From Longimicrobiales bacterium (GTDB lineage: Bacteria > Gemmatimonadota > Gemmatimonadetes > Longimicrobiales > Gaopeijiaceae): a stretch of DNA of 64,000 nt. Shown one piece after another: positions 2,544 through 59,278 of the stretch. The position numbers and the translations under genes are program-made. The notes below the pieces were generated by a model. The model was not told the DNA's origin. It searched no databases and was given only the letters and a program-made list of their open reading frames with translations. The DNA is taken from the NCBI GenBank assembly GCA_965249725.1, contig OZ252251.1:64001-128000 (forward strand), in the 5' to 3' direction. The first letter of the stretch is position 1; every line of letters starts with the position of its first letter.

Positions 2544-5237
2544 CTACCGCGATCCTCCAGTCGCTGTCCACTCGTCCGCATCGAGCGAGACCAGATTGGC
2601 GAAGAGCCGGTAGGCGCCCGGCACTCCAGCGGGAAACTGCCTGAAGAAGGAGAGGGCTACATAGGCATAGAGCCCCTCTCCCAGTCGAGCGACCAGCAGC
2701 GACCCGTGCGTGGGTTCCTCACCGGGGTCGCGGAGCTCCAGTAGGGGAGTAAAGCGCTCATCCCACTCACTCAGAAAGTAGAGGCCGCGTTCCTGAACCC
2801 ACCCTGAGAAGTCCGCTTCCGTGATGCGGTTCGGCGAATTGAATACCGGCGACCCGGGATCGAGCATCGCGAAAGGCGAGTTCTCGTCGGTCACACGAGG
2901 AGCAGACCGATTCCCCATACTCACGGGATAAGGAGCGAAGCCACCCCGGGGATACTCGAACTTGTTGTACTGCACGATCACAGTGCCCCCGGCACGGGCG
3001 AACTCCAGGATCTGGTCGTTGGCCCCTGAGACGTCTGGGCGAGTCTCGTATACCCGTATTCCGAGCACCAGCACATCGTAGGCGGAGAAGTCGCCCCCAC
3101 GAACGCGTTCGATGGTCACCTCCTCCGCGTCGACGCCCATCTGCTGCAGCGCTTCCAGGCCGTCGTCGCCCGAACCCATGACGTATCCGACCTTGATGCC
3201 CGCCGCCACGGTGACCGGTAGGATCGAGGCCCGCATCTCGGCGGGTTCCATGTAAAGCGTCCGCTCGATGTGTGGATAGTCTATGATGTCGACGCGCTCG
3301 TCGAAGCGCGTTCCGTCGTCGCGGATCGCCACCGCGCGGAATACGTGGGCACCCGCATCCACATCGCGACCGGGCTCCACAGTGAACGTGAACCCTCGGC
3401 TCGAGCCTTCCACGTCCATGGTGAAAGGGATGCTCGCCGGCATGACGCTCCACCCCTCAGGCGCCTGGAGCACAACGCTGCCCGACGTTCCGGAGCGCGA
3501 GTCGTTGCGGACGAGCACCGTCACCTCCCGCGCTTCGCTCGATCCCTGTGGCCACGCCATGCCCCTCGGCTCCATGCCCACCGACAGGGCCGGTGTCGCC
3601 AGAACCGGAGCGCGGTACTCACCCGTGGCCTTGTCCACACCCACGTATCGAGCGCGACTCCCCCAGACCAGGTGCACGGGTGCATCGATCCCCGGTATGT
3701 GAAGACTGAACTCGCCCGCGGCGCTGAGGAGCGCCCTCCAGTTCCGTGGAAGGCTCTCCGATCCGTTGGTGTCCGACCACTGGTACATATCCCCCTGCCG
3801 GGGCGCCTCGAGGTAGTACAGGCGCGACGCGGGCAGATCCTGATCCAGGTGCACACGGTAGCTCCAACTCGCCATCTCCCCCGATTCCAGCTCCTGGGGC
3901 GCGAGAGTCTGCCCGTCGAGATCGGCGAATTCTGCCGATCCTCCAGCCCACTCACCCGGCCCCGCGGCCTGGATCACGGCTCCGTCGACGCGGAACGGCC
4001 CGCCATTCCAGACGCGCACCTCCAAATCGAGGTCCTGACCGGCCGTCACGAGATCGTCATTCGCCCTCACATCGACGACGATGGAGGCGGCCTTCATGAG
4101 TGCCCAGCGGACCTGGGCCGCACGCATGGCAATAGGCTCGCCAAGCTCCGACCCGACCTCCTCCATGTCGCGCATGAGCCCGAACGTGGCCTCCAGGTGG
4201 CGGTAGGCCAGAGCCAACGGAGCTGCCGCGCGCTCGGGCCTGAGGGCGTCCAGGGACTCGGCAGCATCCTGTATCGCAGTCCGGTAGGCCCTGAGATGCT
4301 CCCGCATGGGAGCGGCCGAGCCTTCGGGCAAGCCGTTCGTAAGCCCGGCTAGCGTCGTGTCGACGCCGGCGAAGATGCCATCGTCACCCGCAGGTTCCTG
4401 TACATGACTCACCACTAGGCGCAACCCGGCGTCACGTGGGCCCAGGGGCTGAGGGGCCCCCATGTCTTGCGACCGGTGCTGGCTCCTGCTCTCCATCGAC
4501 AACTGGAGGTAGGATCGCCCGAGGAGCGGGTCGAAGGTGCCGGTGGGCACGGTCACAGGGGGCGGATCAGGACTGCGCCGAACGGAGTGGTACAGCTTCT
4601 GGGTCCGCCACGCCTGGCCGGCTCCCCCCGGAAGGTCCGTGAATCGCGACGGATCGTTGGCCGCCTCGAAAGCCTCGCCAACGAGAATGCCGCTGGCCTG
4701 ATGCTGCCCGTGCCCGTCGCGCGGAGTGCCGCTCCAGACCGAGACGATCACCTGGGGCCGGAACGTACGGATCACCCAGACGATGTCGCGCAACACCTCG
4801 TCCCGGGGCCAGTGGGCGAAGGCCTCGTCCGCACTCTTGGAGAATCCGTAATCATACGCCCGCGTGAAGAACTGCCTCCCGCCATCCAACTCGCGGGCCG
4901 CCTCGAGCTCTCCCGTCCGGATGATGCCCAGGCCCTCACCCAGCTCGGGGCCGATCAGGTTCTGTCCGCCGTCACCACGGGTCAAAGACAGGTAGGCCGT
5001 CTCGACCCCCATGCCCCGTGCGAGGGCCGTGAGAAGCCCCGTATCCTCGTCGTCGGGGTGAGCTCCGATCATGAGCACTCGCTTGACGCCGTCGAGCCTC
5101 CGAAGCGTGAGCGCCGCCTCCACGACCCCACTCCCCTCCGGCCCGATCTGAGCCGCCAAAGGCGCGGCCCCGAGCATCAACGCAACCAACGCGACGGTCA
5201 GCACGACCCCAAAACTCCCCTTCTCTGTTGTCGTCAT
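2544..5237 (-). CDS. Secreted PIG-L/LmbE family deacetylase with NEW3-like and C-terminal domains
   Basis: Signal peptide (..APLAA|Q); GAHPDDED, SLTRGDGGQN, IRTGEL, GHGQHQ motifs. Confidence 0.9.
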   Translation of the reverse strand: MTTTEKGSFGVVLTVALVALMLGAAPLAAQIGPEGSGVVEAALTLRRLDGVKRVLMIGAHPDDEDTGLLTALARGMGVETAYLSLTRGDGGQNLIGPELGEGLGIIRTGELEAARELDGGRQFFTRAYDYGFSKSADEAFAHWPRDEVLRDIVWVIRTFRPQVIVSVWSGTPRDGHGQHQASGILVGEAFEAANDPSRFTDLPGGAGQAWRTQKLYHSVRRSPDPPPVTVPTGTFDPLLGRSYLQLSMESRSQHRSQDMGAPQPLGPRDAGLRLVVSHVQEPAGDDGIFAGVDTTLAGLTNGLPEGSAAPMREHLRAYRTAIQDAAESLDALRPERAAAPLALAYRHLEATFGLMRDMEEVGSELGEPIAMRAAQVRWALMKAASIVVDVRANDDLVTAGQDLDLEVRVWNGGPFRVDGAVIQAAGPGEWAGGSAEFADLDGQTLAPQELESGEMASWSYRVHLDQDLPASRLYYLEAPRQGDMYQWSDTNGSESLPRNWRALLSAAGEFSLHIPGIDAPVHLVWGSRARYVGVDKATGEYRAPVLATPALSVGMEPRGMAWPQGSSEAREVTVLVRNDSRSGTSGSVVLQAPEGWSVMPASIPFTMDVEGSSRGFTFTVEPGRDVDAGAHVFRAVAIRDDGTRFDERVDIIDYPHIERTLYMEPAEMRASILPVTVAAGIKVGYVMGSGDDGLEALQQMGVDAEEVTIERVRGGDFSAYDVLVLGIRVYETRPDVSGANDQILEFARAGGTVIVQYNKFEYPRGGFAPYPVSMGNRSAPRVTDENSPFAMLDPGSPVFNSPNRITEADFSGWVQERGLYFLSEWDERFTPLLELRDPGEEPTHGSLLVARLGEGLYAYVALSFFRQFPAGVPGAYRLFANLVSLDADEWTATGGSR

Positions 5238-49086: not shown

Positions 49087-50841
49087 CTAGGACTCGGGTA
49101 GCCCGGCTGCCCGCAACCCTTCAAGCAGACGGGCCTGATGCTCGGGTTTGGCGTAGGGGAACTGACGGCTGAGGGTGGTCACCGTGGCCTTGGGCATCAA
49201 CCTGACGATCTCGTCACCTGAGTTCCGGGTGCCCTCCAGATCGCCGCACGCGTGTCGGAGCATCGTGTCGTACACGTGTGCGGCGGGATAGTCGGGCGCC
49301 TTGTCCAGTAGCTCATCCCTATGACGCTCGGCCTCAGCGTACCGCCCCATCTGGAGGTAGAGGTGGACGAAGTTGAGTAGGGCCGGAGCCGAGAGGTGCG
49401 GGTCCAGGCGCGCCGCATGCAGCATGGGCACTTCCGCCAGCTCCGGGTGTCCGCTGAAGATGAGGCTCGAGGAGTAGAAGAGTTGGGCTTCCGAAGAATT
49501 CGGGTCGAGAGCTAGCGCTTGTTCATGTTCGGAGAGGCTGCGCTGATGCCCGTCCTTCCACATGTGCATCCAGCCCAGGAACGAATGCCCGAGGGCCAGG
49601 TTCGGATCCTGGGCGACGGAAGTCTCGGCGTCTCGAATCGCCAAGTCCATGGCGTCAGGATCGGTATTCCAGCCGAAAAACCACGCATGGAATTTCACGT
49701 AGCTGCGATAGGCCAGGGCCAGCGCGAATCCTGGATCCAGGGCTAGGGCTTCATCGAACATCGCCAACGCCTCGGCGTTCGTCACTGGACTGGGTTGACG
49801 GTACAGAACCCGACCTCTCAGGAAAAGATCATGAGCTTCGGCGCTGGTCGTGTACTCGCTTCCCCGCTGTTTCTCCTCTGCTGCGGTCAGCTGGACGGAG
49901 AGGGCCGACACGATCTTTCCGGTGATGTCGTCCTGCAGGGCGAAGATGTCGTCAGAGGTCCCGTCGTACCGTTCGGTCCAGACGTATTGGGAGCTCGAAG
50001 TATCAGCGAGCTTCGCGTTGATCCGCACGCGACTGCCGGATTTTTGTACGCTTCCCTCCAATGCGTAATGAACACCAAGTTCCATGCGGACTCTTGTCAG
50101 GTCCACCGCCTCTCCTTTGTACGTAAAGGATGAGTTACGACCGATCACGAACAGACCGGACAGCTTCGAGAGGTCGGTGATGATGTCCTCGGTGAGTCCG
50201 TCCGAGAAGTACTCCTGCTCGGGGTCACCACTCAGATTCTGAAACGGCAGCACGGCGATCGACGGCTTGTCCGGCAACTCCAACCGAACTTGAGGGACCG
50301 ATCCAGGCCGGCTGCTCTCGGAGTCCACCAGGCGGAAGGCACGGATGCGCTCCGCTATGTTCTTGACCTCCTGGTCACCCATGTCCTCGAACGTCACGTC
50401 GACCTTGGCGCGGACCTGACGGTATGCGTCGTCCGATAGAGTCACACCTCCAGGTTCGGCCAAAGCCTCCATTCGAGCCGCGACGTTCACCCCATCACCA
50501 TAGACGGTCCCGTCTTCCTTCTCGATGATGTCGCCCAAGTTGATGCCGATGCGGAATCGCATTTTGCGATCCTCGCTGAGTTGCTCGTTCCGCTCGGACA
50601 GCGCGACCTGGATCTCCATCGCACAGCGCACGGCCTCGACCACGCTATCGAAGACGCTGAGAACACTGTCACCGGCCGTGTCGACGACCCTGCCGTCGCG
50701 GCTCTCTACGCGCTTGCTGAACACATCCCGACACTCCACCAGGACTTCGATCGTGGCTTCCTCGTCATCGCCCATCAGCCGTGAGTATCCAACGACGTCG
50801 GCGCACAGGATGGCCGCTAGTCTGCGTTTTTGGTCCGACAT
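49087..50841 (-). CDS. Class III adenylate/guanylate cyclase with TolB-like and TPR domains
   Basis: AAILCADVVGYS, TAGDS, FRIGINLGD, GDGVNVAAR; SIAVLPFQNLS; TPRs. Confidence 0.9.
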   Translation of the reverse strand: MSDQKRRLAAILCADVVGYSRLMGDDEEATIEVLVECRDVFSKRVESRDGRVVDTAGDSVLSVFDSVVEAVRCAMEIQVALSERNEQLSEDRKMRFRIGINLGDIIEKEDGTVYGDGVNVAARMEALAEPGGVTLSDDAYRQVRAKVDVTFEDMGDQEVKNIAERIRAFRLVDSESSRPGSVPQVRLELPDKPSIAVLPFQNLSGDPEQEYFSDGLTEDIITDLSKLSGLFVIGRNSSFTYKGEAVDLTRVRMELGVHYALEGSVQKSGSRVRINAKLADTSSSQYVWTERYDGTSDDIFALQDDITGKIVSALSVQLTAAEEKQRGSEYTTSAEAHDLFLRGRVLYRQPSPVTNAEALAMFDEALALDPGFALALAYRSYVKFHAWFFGWNTDPDAMDLAIRDAETSVAQDPNLALGHSFLGWMHMWKDGHQRSLSEHEQALALDPNSSEAQLFYSSSLIFSGHPELAEVPMLHAARLDPHLSAPALLNFVHLYLQMGRYAEAERHRDELLDKAPDYPAAHVYDTMLRHACGDLEGTRNSGDEIVRLMPKATVTTLSRQFPYAKPEHQARLLEGLRAAGLPES

Positions 50842-50940
50842 GTCGCGACGTTCTCTCATCGTGCGGGCGAGCCGGGCTAGTCCTGCAGTCGCCGGGAGGC
50901 CCGCCTCCCAGCGCAAACACCCGGGCGAACAAGGTGCCCC

Positions 50941-51445
50941 TTAGTCATTTCCGTGGCTAGAGGGAAGTCGAACCCGCGACCAGAGGAAGGCCGTCAAGCG
51001 CTCCTTTACTTGTCGAGACGGGTCGGACCGCCCATTCCGAATCGCCTTGATGTACCGCACACTCTTGCCCGTCGCCTCGGCCAGTTCCCGAGCTGTGTAG
51101 TTCTGAAGTCTCTCCCGGATGTGCCGCCATGAATTGGACCCGTAGTTCGCAACCACTTCGTCGGGATCATGTATCAAGCCAGAGTTGACCTCCTCAAGCC
51201 GGTGCGACTCCTTCCCGACATAGTCGACCCAATCAAGCTCAACACTCCGGCGCCGCAGCAAGCCCCGAGTCGCTGCGCCACATTCGGCCCCGTCCGGCCC
51301 CGCACTCTTCGGCTCAGGATGGCTCTGAAACAACTCCGCAACATCTCGATACGTCTTTAGTCTCGCTGCATCCGGCGAGGCGCCCCCAGGTCGCGTCGTC
51401 ACCTCAAAGACCTCGCCCGAATATTGATCGATCCAAGGCAGTTCG
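50941..51445 (-). pseudogene. C-terminal remnant resembling casposon-type family B DNA polymerase, ending in an HTH
   Basis: WIDQYSG, KTYRDV, HPEPKS.GPDG..C...TRGLLRRR, YVGKESHRLEEV..GLIH; recognised from recall only; lower-GC codon usage. Confidence 0.55.
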
Positions 51446-51469
51446 CGCGTGCTGGAGCTCGAGTCGTTG

Positions 51470-51800
51470 GACTGCAAGACGCGGAGAGCTTCCTGGTGGC
51501 ACCCGAGGGCCTCGACTCCGCGGCGGTGGAGGACCTGATCACACACGGTGAGCGCAGGATCATCCCGCCCCATCCGCTCCGGCACCCGATATGGTTGGCA
51601 GCCTAGGGATGGCTCGGGCGTTCTATCACCTCATGGACCGGACTGCCGACCATTCGGTTGCCGGCACGTTCGGGGCAGTCTCGAAGGCCATGTCCGACTC
51701 GGTCAATGCGATTCTGGAACGCCAAGACGGAGGCGACGCAGGGCTTCTGGCGGCGACACTTCAGGTAGCCGACGCGCGGCGGGCACCCCCGCTCTCCTAG
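51470..51800 (+). pseudogene. Unidentified broken gene fragment
   Basis: Two short host-like ORF pieces (..AESFLVAPEGLDSAAVEDL.. and MVGSLGMARAFYHL..) in different frames. Confidence 0.3.
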
Positions 51801-52854: not shown

Positions 52855-55800
52855 TTACGGATCCAGGGGCCGGGCGACCATGATGCCGTCCTGCCCTCCG
52901 ATGCGTTGAACGCGGTCCGCGAGAGGCAGCTCGCTCACCTCTACCGCCCCGTCCACAAGAGGAGCGTGGAGCAGATGCAGCTGCCCGTTCTTCCACAGGG
53001 CGATTCCGGTGTGAGCAACATCCAGTCCGGACACGGTACTCGTTGCGGCGATGACGTCTCCATCCTGGATCCGGTCAGCGACCTCGGCAATCCGGTCCTG
53101 GGGAACGTAGTGACGAGGCGTGCTGCTGAGTCGAGCCTCGATCTCCCGAAGGGCGGATAGGAACGCCGGATCCTCACCGAGTTGGCGGTAGGCGTCGGGA
53201 TGCGTGGTCATGAAGTCGATGGGCTCGTGGTCCGGGATACCTCCCAACTGGGGCGACAGGTGCCTTACCAACCCCCTGGCGTCCTTATCGCTGATCCACT
53301 CGCTGAAGTAGTGGAGCCGCGTGGGATACCCGTCGAGGCTCCCGTCTCGATAGCGGAGGTTCTGCAAGATGCCGGAGTAGTACGCCCGGTGCCGCACCGG
53401 GTCGTCGAGCATCGTCTCGGGAACGCTCCGGACGAAGCGGGCCAACGCAAGCGCGTTCTCGACGAACGTCACGCAGTCGAGCTCCTGGAGCTCGATGACT
53501 AGGCCCTCCTCCCCTTCGACTTCCAGCGTGTGGGGCGCATAAGGCGTTCCGACGAAACGCTCACCGATGCGAGCCACGATCTGGCCGATGGGCAGGGTGT
53601 CCAGTCCGTTCGCGTAGGCCCAGCGCGCCTGATCGCGCATGATGCCCCAGTCCTCCTCCGTGCCGGGGTGGGTGGTGGGACCCGGAGCCGTGACTCCAGC
53701 GGTCGTGCTCGGACCGACCGACTGATCCGTGGCGGATTCGGCGATCGAACCCACCGCTGCCTCGTCGTCCGACGCCGACCGGTCCGCCCTGCCGCACCCC
53801 GAGAGGCCCAGCCCGAGACACAGCAGCAGCCCGGCCACACCCGCCTCCCTGGCCCGCCGCAACGCCCGCCACACCCGCGGCGGACTGAACGGAAGCGAGT
53901 CCATCCGGACCCCCACCGCGTCATAGATCGCGTTGGCGATGGCGGGAATCGACGGATGGAGCGGCCCCTCCCCCGCCTCCTTGGCCCCGTACGGTCCTTC
54001 CGGATCGATCGACTCCACGATCAGCGACTCGAGCTCCGGCGTGTCGAGGCTCGTGGGGATCTTGTAGTCGAGGAGCGAGGGAGCATTATGCAGGCCGGCC
54101 CGTCCGTGGTCGGCGTCCTTGAAGATGTGCTCCTCCATGAGTGCCTCACCGAAGCCCATGTACGCGGAGCCCTCCATCTGACCCTCGACGAGTACGGGGT
54201 TGAGCGCCCGGCCGCAGTCATGTGCGACCCAGATCTTCCGCACGTCCACGAAGCCGGTCTCTACGTCCACGTCGACCTCTGCTACGTGGGCCGTGAACGA
54301 GTAGGCGGGTGACGCGCCGATCGTGCCGCCGCGGTACTCGCCGTGTACATCCTTGGGGGTGTTGTACGATCCCGTAGCGCCCAGCGCTCCGTACTTGGCC
54401 TCAGCCAGATTGAACGCCTCTCGGATGGGCATCTTCTGCTCGGTGTCTCCCGCGTAGAACGCCCAGCCTCCGGCGAGCAGCACCTCGCCCGACTTGCACT
54501 CCCAAGACTCGGCCACTGCGTTCTGCACGAGCTTCTTGAGCTTCCTGGCCCCGTCGATCGTGGCGTTGCCCAACATGAACGTCACCCGAGAAGAGTAGGC
54601 GCCCAGGTCCACCGGAGTGAAGTCGGTATCTCCCCGGTAGACCCTTACGTGTTCGAGAGGCACGCCCAGCTCTTCCGCCGCGATGTACGCCACCATCGAA
54701 TCGCAGCCCTGGCCGATCTCACTGGCCCCGCTGAACAGAGCCACCCGACCCGACCGGTCGATCTGGATCTGGATCGCGGACTGGGGCATCTCGTTGGGAT
54801 AGATCGGGTAGTTGGTGCCCGAGATGTACGTCGAGCCGGCCACGCCCAACCCTTGGCCGAAGGGCAGCTTTCCGTAGCGCTCCTTCCAGTCCGAAGCCCG
54901 CTCGACCGAATCCAGGCACTCCAGAAAGCCGTTCGACGTGACGCGGAGCTCGTTGACGGTCCGCGTATGCTCGCCGATGAAGTTCTTCCGTCGCAGCTCG
55001 ATCGGGTCCATCTCGAGCGCCCCCGCCATCTTGTCCAGCTGCACCTCGAACGCGAAGCGGGGCTGTACGGAACCGTGACCTCGCTTGGGTCCGCACGCCG
55101 GCTTGTTCGTGTAGACGCGCGTCGAGTCGAAGCGGTACGCGGGCATCTCATAGGGCGCGGTGAGGAGCTGGCCTGAGTAGTAGGTCGTGACCAGCCCGAA
55201 CGACGCATAGGCCCCTCCGTCCAGCACGATGTTCGCGTCCACGGACTGGAGCTTACCGTCCTTGGACGCGCCGGTGCGGTAATGCATGTGGAACGGATGG
55301 CGACCCCGGTGGGCGTAGAAGACCTCCTCGCGAGTGTAGAGGATCTTCACGGGCCGGCCGGTGATCATCGCAAGCTTCGCGACGCAGAACTCGAGGTCGA
55401 AGGGCTCGGACTTGCCGCCGAAGGCGCCCCCGACCAGGGGCTGAAGGACACGGACCTTGGCTGCGTCCACGTCGAGGACCCTCGCCAGTTCCCGGTGCAG
55501 GTAGTGCGGCACCTGAGTGGCCGACCACACGGTGAGCTTCCCATCGCCCTCGAAGTGCCCGATGGCGCAGTGGGGTTCGATGGGCGTGTGGGTGGTCCCC
55601 TCGAAGAAGTAGTCGTCCTCTACGACGACATCGGACGAGTCCATCAAGGCGTCGACCTCACCGAACTCCAACTTCACCTTCTTGGTGATGTTGCCGTTAT
55701 GCCCCTCCTTCTTGGGCTCGTGGATGAACGGGCCGTCGGACGCATCGAGGGACTGGTGCGGATCGAGATAGGCGGGAAGCTCCTCGTATTCCACCTTGAT

Positions 55801-56178
55801 CGCATCGAGCGCGCATAAGGCGGTGTCCTCGTCCACGGCCGCGACCGCCGCGACGCCGTCACCGATATACCGCACGCGCTCGACACACAGGGGCGACTCG
55901 TCGGGCGTCCAAGGGATGATGCCGTACTTCACCGGCATGTCCCGCCCCGTGATCACGGCCCGGACGCCCTCCATGGCCAACGCATCGCCCGCATCGATGG
56001 AGATGATCCGCGCGTGGGGGTGCGGGCTTCTGAGGATCTTCCCGTGCAGCATGCCCGGAAACGCTAGATCGTCCGTGTACACGGCCTGACCCGTCGACGT
56101 CGCCAGACCGTCGACCTTCCGTTGCGGTTTCCCTATTAACGTGAAGTCGGACTTCGACTTAGAAGAACGGAACGTCAT
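52855..56178 (-). CDS. Molybdopterin-binding large subunit (HcrA-like) fused to a lipoprotein signal and a DUF1460 amidase domain
   Basis: LRSPHPHA, GGAFGGK, PKRGHG, GQMEG, GAKEAGEG; then LLLCLGLGLSGC, LDCVTFVE, RLHYFSEW, GLDVAHTG, LLHA. Confidence 0.88.
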   Translation of the reverse strand: MTFRSSKSKSDFTLIGKPQRKVDGLATSTGQAVYTDDLAFPGMLHGKILRSPHPHARIISIDAGDALAMEGVRAVITGRDMPVKYGIIPWTPDESPLCVERVRYIGDGVAAVAAVDEDTALCALDAIKVEYEELPAYLDPHQSLDASDGPFIHEPKKEGHNGNITKKVKLEFGEVDALMDSSDVVVEDDYFFEGTTHTPIEPHCAIGHFEGDGKLTVWSATQVPHYLHRELARVLDVDAAKVRVLQPLVGGAFGGKSEPFDLEFCVAKLAMITGRPVKILYTREEVFYAHRGRHPFHMHYRTGASKDGKLQSVDANIVLDGGAYASFGLVTTYYSGQLLTAPYEMPAYRFDSTRVYTNKPACGPKRGHGSVQPRFAFEVQLDKMAGALEMDPIELRRKNFIGEHTRTVNELRVTSNGFLECLDSVERASDWKERYGKLPFGQGLGVAGSTYISGTNYPIYPNEMPQSAIQIQIDRSGRVALFSGASEIGQGCDSMVAYIAAEELGVPLEHVRVYRGDTDFTPVDLGAYSSRVTFMLGNATIDGARKLKKLVQNAVAESWECKSGEVLLAGGWAFYAGDTEQKMPIREAFNLAEAKYGALGATGSYNTPKDVHGEYRGGTIGASPAYSFTAHVAEVDVDVETGFVDVRKIWVAHDCGRALNPVLVEGQMEGSAYMGFGEALMEEHIFKDADHGRAGLHNAPSLLDYKIPTSLDTPELESLIVESIDPEGPYGAKEAGEGPLHPSIPAIANAIYDAVGVRMDSLPFSPPRVWRALRRAREAGVAGLLLCLGLGLSGCGRADRSASDDEAAVGSIAESATDQSVGPSTTAGVTAPGPTTHPGTEEDWGIMRDQARWAYANGLDTLPIGQIVARIGERFVGTPYAPHTLEVEGEEGLVIELQELDCVTFVENALALARFVRSVPETMLDDPVRHRAYYSGILQNLRYRDGSLDGYPTRLHYFSEWISDKDARGLVRHLSPQLGGIPDHEPIDFMTTHPDAYRQLGEDPAFLSALREIEARLSSTPRHYVPQDRIAEVADRIQDGDVIAATSTVSGLDVAHTGIALWKNGQLHLLHAPLVDGAVEVSELPLADRVQRIGGQDGIMVARPLDP

Positions 56179-56180
56179 CG

Positions 56181-56699
56181 CTAGAGGTCCCCCTCAGCGC
56201 TCGGGGCCGACGCACCGTTCGCGCCATTCAAGCGCTCCGCCGCCGCCTCGACGGCATCCAGTATCTTCGTGTATCCGGTGCACCGGCAGAGATTGCCCGC
56301 CAGGGCCTCTTTGACCTGTTCGCGGCTGGGCTCGGGCGTGCGCTCCAGAAGAGCCGCTGCCGAGCAGAGGATCCCCGGCGTACAGAAGCCGCACTGAGCC
56401 GCACCTTTCAGGTCGAACTCGTCCTGGAGCGGGTGCGGGCCCTCGGCAGTAGCAAGCCCCTCGACCGTGGTGACCTCACACCCCTCGGCCTCCCAGACCG
56501 GCGTGATGCACGCCAGCGTCGGCACCGAATCGATGAGGACCGTGCAAGCCCCGCAGTCGCCCTTGTCGCAGCCCTGCTTTGAGCCGGTCAGGCCCAGGGC
56601 GTAGCGGAGCGTCTCCAGCAACGTGAAGTGACTCGGGACGCCCCTAACATGGACGTCTCCGTTCACCTTCAGACGGACGATGTCGGTGCTGGTGGACAC
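56181..56699 (-). CDS. 2Fe-2S small subunit (HcrC/CoxS-like); start approximate
   Basis: GCDKGDCGACT, QCGFCTPG, NLCRCTGY. Confidence 0.92.
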   Translation of the reverse strand: MSTSTDIVRLKVNGDVHVRGVPSHFTLLETLRYALGLTGSKQGCDKGDCGACTVLIDSVPTLACITPVWEAEGCEVTTVEGLATAEGPHPLQDEFDLKGAAQCGFCTPGILCSAAALLERTPEPSREQVKEALAGNLCRCTGYTKILDAVEAAAERLNGANGASAPSAEGDL

Positions 56700-56889
56700 G
56701 CTGGACGCAGGCCCTCCTGGCGAGTTTGCCGTAGGAATCGACTCTACGGTGGGACGGGTAGTGCGGGGTTGCACGCACCGGACAAAGGTGACCTGTCGGG
56801 TATGGCCGAGCAAGCGGGAACACTTTCCTGAGAGTGAGGGGTATGCGAGGTCCGAGCCAGGAACCCGCCGTCCACAGGAGTCACAAAGA

Positions 56890-57306
56890 ATGCCCTATCC
56901 CGAGATGATGGTTGCGCCCATGCGCGAGGACTTTACGCGCGTCGGCTTCAAGGAGCTCAAGACGCCCGAAGAAGTAGACCAGGTTCTCAGCACCGAGAAG
57001 CGGACGACCGTCGTTGCCGTCAATTCGGTCTGCGGTTGTGCGGCCGGTGCGATGAGGCCGGCCGTCGTCCTCTCCCTGTCGCACGACAACGTTCCCGAGG
57101 TCCTCACCACGGTCTTCGCGGGTCAAGATCTCGAGGCGACGGACCGTGCGCGTGAGTACTTCACGGGCTACCCGCCGTCTTCACCCTCCGTCGCCTTGCT
57201 CAAGAACGGCGAAGTCGTGTACATGATGGAGCGCCACGAGATCGAGGGACGGCATCCGTACGAGATCGCCGAGAGTCTGAGGGCGGCGTACGACGAGCAC
57301 TGCTAG
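56890..57306 (+). CDS. Bacilliredoxin (BrxA/BrxB family)
   Basis: MPYPEMMVAPMRE, NSVCGCAAG, TVFAGQD, YPPSSPS; AGGAG SD. Confidence 0.92.
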   Translation: MPYPEMMVAPMREDFTRVGFKELKTPEEVDQVLSTEKRTTVVAVNSVCGCAAGAMRPAVVLSLSHDNVPEVLTTVFAGQDLEATDRAREYFTGYPPSSPSVALLKNGEVVYMMERHEIEGRHPYEIAESLRAAYDEHC

Positions 57307-57344
57307 CCGAAACCAGTAGGATCCGACAGAGGACGGCGGGTGGG

Positions 57345-57370
57345 GCCGCCGGGAGACGACTCCCGGCGGC
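57345..57370. terminator. Hairpin between convergent genes
   Basis: Perfect 11-bp stem GCCGCCGGGAG/CTCCCGGCGGC with 4-nt loop. Confidence 0.65.
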
Positions 57371-57392
57371 TTCGTCTATCCGGGAGGACTGA

Positions 57393-58088
57393 TCAGTCTT
57401 CCCTGGGCGGCGCCAACCTGGGTTGAAGCCCCTTCCGCTCCAGCTTCCGTCGCTTCTTGGCCTCCCTCGGAGTCTCCCCCGGGAGCCTCACCTCCACTCC
57501 GACACCCCCCATCATGGCGAACCCCTTGATGCGTAGCGTCGGGCGATCGGGACTGGTGTGGAGCGGCTGGTCGGTGTTGTGGTCGAAGCCGCCCATGAAG
57601 GCAAATCCACTCACCTCCACGTCCATCTCCGGAGGCACGATGATCTCGGCCCCGCCCATCAGGGTGAACACGTGCACTTCGGTGACGCCGGGACCGAGCA
57701 TGGCCTCACGGAAATCGAGGGAGAAGCCGCCCATGACTCCCACCGCGAAGTTGTTCCGCGCCGGAATCCAGCGCCCGGCCCGGCTGTTGCCGCCCATGAG
57801 GCTCACCATGTAGGCCCGTTCGGCCACCCGATCCGCTGGCACGACGACGGGAGCTCCGCCGCGGGCGGGAAGCACGGTGGAGGCGGTGGCGGGAAGATTC
57901 GTGGCCGGTAGGTCGACGAGGAGCTCGTTCAGCTCGGCCTCGGTGGCCGACTGGTTCGCAACGTCGAGGCGTCGCTCGAACTCCGACATCTCCAGCACGT
58001 CGTTCGCGAAATGCTCCATAAGGGTATCGACCGCACGCTGGCGCGCGACCTCGATCCCAACGGGTCGGACTCCCTTCCCGTCCGTCAT
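57393..58088 (-). CDS. DUF1707 (SHOCT-like) plus LiaF-like C-terminal domain protein
   Basis: RQRAVDTLMEHF..EFERRLD; repeated MGG motifs and LDFREA. Confidence 0.8.
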   Translation of the reverse strand: MTDGKGVRPVGIEVARQRAVDTLMEHFANDVLEMSEFERRLDVANQSATEAELNELLVDLPATNLPATASTVLPARGGAPVVVPADRVAERAYMVSLMGGNSRAGRWIPARNNFAVGVMGGFSLDFREAMLGPGVTEVHVFTLMGGAEIIVPPEMDVEVSGFAFMGGFDHNTDQPLHTSPDRPTLRIKGFAMMGGVGVEVRLPGETPREAKKRRKLERKGLQPRLAPPRED

Positions 58089-59278
58089 TCCCGAGCTCCG
58101 GCCATGAAGTCGCTCACGAACTGATGGAGCACATCGGCGCAGGCCGAGAGCTCCGATGCCTCGATCCATTCCTCGTCCGAGTGCGCCTGCCCGATGGAGC
58201 CCGGACCGAAGCACACAGCCGGCGTGCCTGCCTCATTGAGGAACGCCGCATCGACCCAGGCCGTCATCCCCTCGACGGAGGCCTCGACTCCCTGGACCGA
58301 ACAGGCCGCGATGAGGCCCTGTACGAGCGGGGAGTCCTCGGCAACCTCGGTCGCCGGACGGGTGAGTCCCTGGACCAACTCGGCGTCGAGCTCGGGAACC
58401 TCTCGGGCCAACCGATCCAGAACGGCCCCGAACTGCTCCATCACCTCGGCCGCCGTCTCCCCCGGTAGCGTCCGCCGCTCCAATACCAACTTGCAGTCGC
58501 TCGGGTACACGGAGGGCGCGGCACCACCACTTATGGTGCCTGCATGGAAAGACCCGTGCGCCAGAAGAGGATGCGGAGCCGCGGAGTTCAGCTTGGTCCT
58601 GAGCTCTCCCAGTCGCGTCAGGTAGCGCCCGGCGTGCTCGATGGCGTCGATGCCCGCCTCGGGCCTCGACCCGTGGGCCGCCCTGCCTCGGAAGAGCACG
58701 TCCACCCAAACGAACCCCTTGTGAGCCGGCATGATCGCGAGGCTCGTAGGCTCACAGACCACCGCTGCGTCGGCACGTACTCCCGATCGCACGACGGCGT
58801 CCATGCCCAGGCTCGCGTGCTCTTCGTCCGCGGTGAGCGCGACGATCAGGGCACCGGAAAGGGCGTCGCCCCTCGCCAATCTCGCGGTGGCGGCCAGGAG
58901 TGATGCCACCCCACCCTTCATGTCGCAGGAGCCCCGTCCCCACAACCGCCCGCCCCGCACCTCTGCCGCGAACGGTGGGACGGTCATTCCGGCCACGCCG
59001 ACGGTGTCGAGATGCCCGTTCAGGAGGACCGTGGGACCCGCATCGGGGTCGCCCAGCCGAGCCAGCACGTTCCACCTCCCGGGGGCCGCTTCGACAGTCT
59101 CCACCTCGAGCCCCCACTCGCGCAGCCACCCTGCCGCCAGATCGGCGATGGCCCCCTCGCCGGCGCCGCCCTCTTCGAGCACCGGGTTCACGGACGGGGT
59201 AGCGACGAGCGCCTGGGCGATCGCCAACGGGTCGCCCACCCCCGCCGCTTCCGAGTATGAACTCGAATCCAGCCTCAC
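58085..59278 (-). CDS. M20 family deacylase (ArgE/DapE-like)
   Basis: NGHLDTV, GRGSCDMKGG, DEE, CEPT, AAHGS, AHSDEE. Confidence 0.9.
   Translation of the reverse strand: MRLDSSSYSEAAGVGDPLAIAQALVATPSVNPVLEEGGAGEGAIADLAAGWLREWGLEVETVEAAPGRWNVLARLGDPDAGPTVLLNGHLDTVGVAGMTVPPFAAEVRGGRLWGRGSCDMKGGVASLLAATARLARGDALSGALIVALTADEEHASLGMDAVVRSGVRADAAVVCEPTSLAIMPAHKGFVWVDVLFRGRAAHGSRPEAGIDAIEHAGRYLTRLGELRTKLNSAAPHPLLAHGSFHAGTISGGAAPSVYPSDCKLVLERRTLPGETAAEVMEQFGAVLDRLAREVPELDAELVQGLTRPATEVAEDSPLVQGLIAACSVQGVEASVEGMTAWVDAAFLNEAGTPAVCFGPGSIGQAHSDEEWIEASELSACADVLHQFVSDFMAGARE

Follow-up and report, generated by a model that had tools for sequence, protein, structure and literature searches.

How a large subunit of a cytoplasmic molybdoenzyme and a peptidoglycan amidase come to be encoded by a single reading frame, and what becomes of the resulting chain, is the question raised by a locus in a 64,000-nucleotide (nt) stretch of DNA from a Longimicrobiales bacterium of the phylum Gemmatimonadota (assembly GCA_965249725.1, contig OZ252251.1, positions 64,001 to 128,000). 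This whole stretch is called the window, and coordinates are counted from its first letter. The open reading frame (ORF) at 52855-56178 on the minus strand encodes 1107 amino acids (aa) with 0 internal stop codons and joins an HcrA-like molybdopterin-binding subunit to a hydrophobic segment ending in a lipobox and then to an AmiA-like (DUF1460) amidase domain. With a probability that we put at about 0.6, the locus represents a recent fusion of two adjacent, translationally coupled genes, from which the amidase would still be exported via an internal lipoprotein signal. G000 denotes the genome holding the window, and other G, L and P numbers denote genomes, loci and database proteins of its relatives.

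The fused reading frame and its amidase

The junction between the two parts is present in sequencing runs from seven studies, with no RNA run among those listed. Logan contigs of the runs X1, X2 and X5, which belong to three studies, each span 53400-54200 with 0 differing letters and 0 gaps, and in X8, from a fourth study, the same interval is covered by two contigs (53400-53983 and 53954-54200), again with 0 differences; one of these runs may be the source of the assembly itself, the others being independent. Since contigs of four studies match without a difference, the fused junction is not an assembly error. An assembly or sequencing artefact, in the form of a missed stop or an indel, might be suspected from the three contigs that make up the G000 assembly and from the two separate genes of its nearest relative. 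Besides the evidence of the read contigs, however, the difference between G000 and the related genome G001 amounts to 29 nt over a rewritten segment rather than to a single-base slip, and the other two frames do not offer a start followed by a signal, so that we consider an artefact to be of negligible probability. The sequence-only reading of this DNA had proposed an in-frame fusion, an internal lipobox, a Shine-Dalgarno motif with a GTG codon, and a basic HcrA C-terminus at the place of a signal-peptide n-region. It was right on these sequence facts: the read contigs bear out the absence of a stop at the junction, and its coordinates for GTG V781, C795, AGGGAGG and the flanking gaps (2 nt to the 2Fe-2S subunit ORF, 12 nt to the FAD subunit ORF) all proved correct on recheck, the amidase motifs LDCVTFVE, DVAHTG and LLHA being present as well.

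The amidase part matches PF07313 (AmiA-like, formerly DUF1460) at 157.7 bits, for a cut-off of 27, over profile positions 2-198 of 202, and the PDB chains 2p1g_A (E 2e-45) and 4h4j/4q5k/4q68 (E 1.7e-44). It is the sole DUF1460 match in the genome. The AmiA family uses a Cys-His-His catalytic triad, according to PMC10318531; in the fused ORF the predicted counterparts are carried by the motifs LDCVTFVE (C902), DVAHTG (H1056) and LLHA (H1071), which align with those of PDB 2p1g. The triad is invariant in all 65 sequences compared, of which 12 are fused and 53 separate. When set against that of HcrA, the divergence of the amidase is no greater in fused lineages (mean residuals +0.008 and +0.021), and the amidases of G000 and G001 are 83% identical where 76% is expected. 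Judged by these comparisons, the fused amidase part is still constrained. Pseudogenisation of the amidase was considered and is ruled out by the invariant triad and the normal divergence rate.

N-acetylmuramoyl-L-alanine (MurNAc-L-Ala) amidase activity on 1,6-anhydro-muropeptides is described, in PMC4600125, for the Bacteroides uniformis enzyme only. That enzyme (PDB 4H4J, 4Q5K, 4Q68) shares the PF07313 domain and the Cys-His-His triad with the protein studied here, whose gene differs in lying inside an hcrCAB operon, in being fused behind HcrA in G000, and in that its activity is predicted. A second point of comparison is BT1087 of Bacteroides thetaiotaomicron, in which an AmiA-like domain also forms the C-terminal part of a two-domain protein, behind an alpha/beta-hydrolase. 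Both domains of BT1087 are proposed, in PMC4600125 as well, to be periplasmic and to serve one pathway, whereas the N-terminal partner in the window is a cytoplasmic, cofactor-bearing subunit and the putative export signal lies between the two parts. Another fusion partner for the same amidase is found in P0004, a 617-aa metagenome protein in which a glycosyl-hydrolase-53 domain (PF07745) precedes a C-terminal AmiA-like domain 60% identical to that of the window.

Table 1. Positions of the fused reading frame, its parts and the adjoining subunit genes in the window
Feature	Position	Strand	Basis or remark
Fused ORF, 1107 aa + stop	52855..56178	-	ORF list, Pfam, read contigs
HcrA-like molybdopterin-binding large subunit part, aa 1-780	53839..56178	-	Pfam, NCBIfam and PDB matches
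Basic stretch RALRRAR, aa 771-777, C-terminal end of HcrA at the place of a signal-peptide n-region	53848..53868	-	
AGGGAGG, Shine-Dalgarno-like motif	53844..53850	-	Followed by 5 nt (CGGGT), then GTG V781
GTG codon V781, possible internal start	53836..53838	-	
Hydrophobic segment VAGLLLCLGLGLSG, aa 781-794, 14 residues, putative h-region of the former amidase signal peptide	53797..53838	-	
Lipobox L792-S-G-C795	53794..53805	-	C795 is TGC at 53794-53796
Linker, aa 796-870, first part of low complexity (Ser, Ala, Thr and Pro rich)	53569..53793	-	
AmiA-like/DUF1460 NlpC/P60-type amidase domain, aa 871-1092	52903..53568	-	PF07313 and PDB matches
Predicted catalytic residues C902, H1056, H1071	53473-53475, 53011-53013, 52966-52968	-	Motif alignment
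hcrC-like [2Fe-2S] small subunit gene	56181..56813	-	Fer2_2 103.8 bits, aa 116-189
hcrB-like FAD subunit gene with Cys-rich Fe-S loop	51847..52842	-	FAD_binding_5 and CO_deh_flav_C

Origin and recurrence of the fusion

The order hcrC-hcrA-amidase-hcrB, for which the sequence-only reading had proposed to search, turned out to be the rule in this Gemmatimonadota family, as a conserved operon usually made of four genes. Among 61 loci classified, namely G000 and 60 relatives (including G025, locus L036, the removal of which alters no conclusion), 55 encode the two proteins separately, 4 are fused and 2 are without the amidase. A 4-nt NTGA overlap joins the hcrA stop to the amidase start in 40 of these 55 separate loci (23 ATGA, 11 GTGA, 6 TTGA). 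Such a stop/start overlap is a classic arrangement for translational coupling. By these signs, the amidase gene is conserved and translationally coupled within the operon of a cytoplasmic molybdoenzyme. Across the family, the gene for the amidase, predicted to be exported and tethered to the membrane, is kept between hcrA and hcrB (loci L013-L092 and L173-L219).

The step from two genes to one can be traced by comparison with G001, a genome of the same genus that encodes two proteins, of which HcrA is 91% and the amidase 83% identical to the G000 sequence. HcrA of G001 ends in ...AREAG followed by TGA, at the very point that corresponds to aa 780 of the fused ORF, and the amidase gene starts in the -1 frame with the overlapping ATG-IRRMRRCGAQGVLSCLALAAMAAC, giving an N-terminus that reads MIRRMRR...AMAAC. 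Between AGGGAGGC and the GTGC of the lipobox lie 45 nt in G000 and 74 nt in G001. The comparison shows a net loss of 29 nt in G000, with which the stop codon of hcrA, the amidase ATG overlapping it and the basic n-region of the amidase disappeared and the two frames came into register. The motif AGGGAGG stands 4 nt before the amidase ATG of G001, and the Shine-Dalgarno motif inside the fused ORF is, judged from this match, the ancestral one of the amidase gene. Tails of 5 to 44 residues at the HcrA C-terminus of relatives indicate that this end of the protein tolerates extensions, and the linker between signal and amidase domain likewise differs in length between homologues.

Two further observations concern the junction in other genomes. 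In seven genomes, G533, G581, G614, G606, G456, G610 and G450 (loci L173, L174, L180, L192, L200, L201 and L203, in the same order), hcrA and the amidase gene lie in frame with a single TGA between them, one substitution or one stop read-through away from a fused product. In G351 (L044), the junction at about 3800-3870 contains a 21-nt tandem duplication, encoding LRSGGAA twice with one C/T difference, that the sister genome G379 does not have.

The fusion is not confined to the window. Among 401 genomes sampled across the phylum, of which G000 is one, continuous matches occur only in G000, G351 and G196. A census of the family covered 314 genomes, of which 208 hold an hcrA ortholog at E<=1e-150, and at least 10 of these 208 (about 5%) are fused: G000, G351, G379, G451, G435, G196, G541, G467, G465 and G537. 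The true number may be higher, since roughly half of the 208 genomes were judged from the match table alone, where 150 of 216 matches are listed. In an HcrA tree of 100 genome rows (the duplicates L178, L187, L191, L195 and L196, as well as L036 and partial loci, having been left out), 85 rows are separate, 10 are fused and 5 are without the amidase; the fused state requires 8 changes, at least 5 of which are forced by branches with SH-aLRT support >=95. An earlier tree of 48 rows, which included database proteins, gave 6 changes, 5 of them forced. Within the genus g169 alone, both states occur: two genomes carry the fusion, and two others have separate genes that overlap at GTGA. On this distribution, the fusion appears to have arisen independently at least five times in the family. 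A collection of 5.8 billion proteins contains nine more full-length proteins that combine the four domains, as well as one N-truncated fused protein, and several of them correspond to fused genomes. The combined architecture of molybdopterin-binding and DUF1460 domains that the sequence-only reading had suggested looking for is thus present in nine other family genomes and in database proteins. That reading had also named what would speak against the fusion: close relatives do encode the two proteins separately, but the fusion is not unique to this assembly and is confirmed by reads.

These counts depend on how a locus is read. Loci were classified by following the hcrA frame to its stop, since GC-rich open frames of more than 1000 codons over-call fusions, as in G007 (L019), where a 1561-aa open frame exists despite separate genes. 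Apparent read-through matches across one TGA, extending to residues 797-846, were checked at the locus (e.g., G223, G277, G109, G165 and G159) and rejected as low-complexity alignments that run beyond the stop, the amidase being encoded in a different frame. A metagenome scan was aimed at the fused clade of P0003, P0006, P0007, P0008 and P0009, the DNA of which came from G465 and G467. Its "full-length" table matches were pieces joined across frames, and the loci were classified by tblastn. Of its 80 loci, 8 contain the two genes, always as separate ones, in 71 hcrA is not followed by an amidase gene (59 of these leaving 1200 nt or more in which one could lie) and one is without the hcrA end.

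The pairing of the two genes is itself not universal. In all four genomes checked from the family f7, hcrA and amidase genes lie 12-33 kb apart. In L082 (G158), L193, L213 and L216, as in the metagenome loci L097 and L102-L107, hcrB directly follows hcrA with no amidase gene, an order seen in some members of the family and in many relatives farther away. In locus L063 (G118), the sequence behind hcrA gave no match to either the amidase or hcrB, and in the sister species G002 neither an hcrA ortholog nor the amidase was found.

Fate of the fused chain

The sequence between the two domains retains features of a lipoprotein signal. The lipobox motif is given as [LVI][ASTVI][GAS]C in PMC12462473, and L792-S-G-C795 fits it, directly after the 14-residue h-region. 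The best 12-residue window of the G000 hydrophobic segment reaches a hydrophobicity of 2.51. The segment is kept in 10 of 10 fused genomes, and the lipobox Cys in 9 of 10. The uncharged stretches are short, with 18 residues in G000, 15 in G379 and 13 in G196 (range 13-18), and thus resemble signals that are cleaved off more than they do membrane-spanning helices. The h-region is preceded by RRAR (aa 774-777) in the fused chain, but by 0 Lys or Arg in a product started at GTG781. Where separate homologues have a defined start, the n-region contains at least one Lys or Arg in 39 of 40, the lone exception being a windowing artefact. The enzymes that such a signal would call for are encoded by G000, both scoring over their cut-offs: LspA (PF01252, 121.5 bits) and Lgt (PF01790, 169.5 bits). 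Twin-arginine export was considered in view of the RR pair and set aside on inspection, the context not being of that type.

In the route that we favour, each ribosome finishing hcrA would read on into the amidase. The basic tail of HcrA (RRAR) would replace the n-region of the amidase, and the retained h-region and lipobox would act as an internal lipoprotein signal. From export onward the steps are those that we infer: the HcrA part would stay in the cytoplasm while the C-terminal stretch of about 310 residues passes through Sec, Lgt would lipidate C795, and LspA would cut before it. The end products would presumably be close to those of unfused relatives, save for a short hydrophobic tail left on HcrA, and in G000 some amidase may also be initiated at GTG781 from the inherited Shine-Dalgarno motif. 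Since a fusion of this kind would resolve itself, it would be nearly neutral, which would explain its repeated gain and loss. The locus can be accounted for in this way without any new coupled function. The constraint on the amidase, the kept signal, the scarcity of internal starts and the shortness of the segments together favour whole-chain synthesis followed by export. Of the two outcomes foreseen by the sequence-only reading, the one in better agreement with the comparisons is a polyprotein that signal peptidase II divides, because of the short segments, the lipobox in 9 of 10 fused genomes, the presence of Lgt and LspA and the small number of usable internal starts; a transmembrane hybrid fits them less well.

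An internal signal would be dispensed with if the amidase lipoprotein were made from GTG781 only, the read-through chain being a tolerated by-product whose 330 additional residues stay attached to cytoplasmic HcrA or are degraded; indeed, C795 belongs to an N-terminal signal only if GTG781 is the start. G000 provides AGGGAGG at 5 nt from the GTG, the same Shine-Dalgarno motif serves the ATG in G001, and a GTG stands at the edge of the hydrophobic segment in 7 of 10 fused genomes. Yet the product of GTG781, M-AGLLLCLGLGLSGC, has 0 Lys or Arg and hence no basic residue before its hydrophobic core, unlike 39 of 40 separate homologues, and the products of the GTG codons in the seven genomes are without a basic residue as well. 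G196 has no in-frame ATG, GTG or TTG between RVWRAI and the lipobox Cys, and the only start codons of G465 and G467 lie inside the hydrophobic core. A GGAGG-like motif before an internal start is found only in G000 and, weakly, in G541, yet the amidase domains of the fused genomes have an intact triad and diverge at a normal rate. Moreover, ribosomes translating hcrA would be expected to occlude the start site. Internal initiation as the sole source of the amidase is therefore considered unlikely. Still less probable, in our judgement, is a stable bitopic hybrid, in which the uncleaved chain would be anchored in the membrane and couple an inner molybdoenzyme to an outer amidase. The topology would be consistent with it, basic residues lying on the N side; the family as a whole shares the order of the genes; a Cys-less N-terminal hydrophobic signal, either an anchor or of the signal-peptidase-I type, was called in 32 of 55 separate loci by an approximate regular expression; and G467, P0003 and P0006 have no lipobox Cys. 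Against this stand the shortness of the uncharged segments, the lipobox kept in 9 of 10 fused genomes, and a fused state that occurs seldom and has been lost again several times, which is not the pattern of a new function under selection. The 12-33 kb separating the two genes in f7 and the 5 of 100 tree rows with hcrA-hcrB and no amidase gene further indicate that the molybdoenzyme does not need the amidase. A link between cell-wall turnover and a redox enzyme, which the sequence-only reading had envisaged, finds no support for the same reasons: at about 5% the fusion is sporadic, scattered and often shallow, 85 of 100 rows are separate, and the state has been gained and reverted repeatedly.

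A further alternative is that the fused amidase is no longer exported and acts in the cytoplasm on imported anhydromuropeptides, in the manner of AmpD, the hydrophobic segment being a decaying relic. The catalytic triad is kept, and E. coli AmpD is, according to the available part of PMC4600125, a cytoplasmic counterpart with the same reaction. A relic linker should, however, have shed its hydrophobic segment and its Cys, whereas the segment persists in 10 of 10 fused genomes and in the diversified g169/P0003-P0009 clade, and the lipobox Cys in 9 of 10, which leaves this explanation with very little probability. Rather doubtful, yet worth stating, is a bolder form of the favoured route: the fused ORF would be a natural bacterial polyprotein with a molybdoenzyme-subunit extension of about 780 residues, HcrA being left tail-anchored and the enzyme located at the membrane. 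The NTGA-coupled operon would then already rely on the amidase signal for drawing the nascent molybdoenzyme, with its ribosome and mRNA, to the membrane, and the fusions would be the Rosetta-stone form of this arrangement.

Several points weigh against export of the amidase from the fused chain. Targeting so late in a chain could be inefficient. G000 keeps a good Shine-Dalgarno motif and GTG, so that direct initiation is possible there. Without a lipobox Cys in G467, P0003 and P0006, cleavage by LspA cannot be universal, and these proteins would need signal peptidase I or stay anchored. The excess of lipoboxes in fused lineages (9 of 10, against 23 of 55 separate loci) is uncorrected for relatedness and comes from a regular expression that under-calls some lipoboxes. 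The rarity of the fusion (at least 10 of 208 genomes, about 5%) and its mostly shallow position on the tree fit a slightly harmful, transient state. In the literature searched, no natural precedent was found for a lipoprotein signal behind a cofactor domain of about 780 residues. Finally, a 430-nt contig of X2 joins 53571 to 53859 and skips 287 nt (53572-53858); because of its 7 mismatches in 54 nt and a shorter side of only 25 nt, this contig is set aside as probably the sequence of a different organism.

Precedents, the molybdoenzyme and neighbouring genes

A search of the literature on DUF1460, molybdopterin-amidase fusions and 4-hydroxybenzoyl-CoA reductase of Gemmatimonadota found no account of an HcrA-amidase architecture, and one on internal signals combined with a lipobox or a polyprotein gave only viral or eukaryotic cases among the matches listed. 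Hayashi et al. reportedly found in 1985 that engineered, internalised prolipoprotein signal sequences are modified and processed, in laboratory constructs with short extensions. These constructs resemble the fused ORF in placing a lipoprotein signal away from the N-terminus and differ from it in that the window has a natural domain of about 780 residues before the putative signal. In nature, the closest analogue is found in viral polyproteins that contain internal signals. In flavi-, pesti- and alphaviruses, one chain contains an internal signal that starts downstream translocation and is then cleaved; there, however, the setting is the eukaryotic endoplasmic reticulum, cleavage is of the signal-peptidase-I type and the arrangement is obligate, whereas the case in the window is bacterial, of the lipoprotein type and sporadic.

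What is unusual, as far as can be read from the genomes, is that a fusion of neighbouring genes by stop loss, in itself a known kind of event, comes with a recurring internalised lipoprotein signal. If the internal lipobox is used, the fused ORFs would provide a natural lipoprotein signal that works at a great distance from the N-terminus, after a cofactor enzyme that has already folded, and that has arisen at least five times, and they would serve as a test of how late in a chain the signal recognition particle and Sec, Lgt and LspA can act. They also call for caution in annotation: fused ORFs in databases are given a single name, "4-hydroxybenzoyl-CoA reductase alpha subunit" or "amidase-like domain-containing protein", and probably yield two proteins in two compartments. 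A part that deserves follow-up is the presence of a periplasmic amidase gene coupled inside the operon of a cytoplasmic molybdoenzyme.

Pfam domains of the Mo, [2Fe-2S] and FAD subunits of the xanthine dehydrogenase family exceed their gathering scores in three adjacent ORFs, those of the HcrA-like part being Ald_Xan_dh_C (aa 29-135), MoCoBD_1 (161-400) and MoCoBD_2 (429-714). The best NCBIfam matches are the alpha, beta and gamma subunits of 4-hydroxybenzoyl-CoA reductase, all below the NCBI equivalog cut-offs used as thresholds: TIGR03194 for the Mo subunit (889.1 bits, cut-off 994.55), TIGR03195 for the FAD subunit (286.5 bits, cut-off 404.55) and TIGR03193 for the small subunit (169.7 bits, cut-off 257.8). 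Among solved chains, the Mo subunit matches 1rm6_A at 625.9 bits, residues 16-772 aligning to chain positions 12-761, the next best chain being that of CO dehydrogenase at 284.8 bits. The FAD subunit matches 1rm6_B at 216.5 bits, with its Cys-rich inserted loop aligned and all five Cys coinciding, while most other solved FAD subunits align only to residue ~118. A Cys-rich loop of the FAD subunit carrying a [4Fe-4S] cluster is a hallmark of the 4-hydroxybenzoyl-CoA reductase family. Because all three subunit scores lie below the equivalog cut-offs, the enzyme is called HcrCAB-like, or 4-hydroxybenzoyl-CoA-reductase-like, with 4-hydroxybenzoyl-CoA as no more than a possible substrate. With the reductase of PDB 1RM6/1SB3, which we take to come from Thauera aromatica, it shares the same three subunits and domains, and this is the best solved relative of its Mo and FAD subunits. 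It differs in its sub-cut-off scores, in operon flanks (49087-51585 and 56680-59278) where no CoA-ligase or aromatic-CoA pathway genes are obvious, and in that the solved alpha chain ends approximately where the ORF of the window continues into signal and amidase.

Family matches of the small-subunit ORF begin at residue 45, and the true hcrC-like start probably lies about 40 codons downstream of the listed TTG at 56813. A scan for promoters and terminators across the operon gave nothing exceeding shuffled sequence. By Pfam, the flank at 49087-51585 encodes a class III cyclase with TPR repeats (49087-50916) and an HTH_3 protein (50941-51585). The opposite flank (56680-59278) encodes a Disulph_isomer-family protein on the plus strand (56680-57306), a DUF1707/LiaF-like protein and an M20 peptidase.

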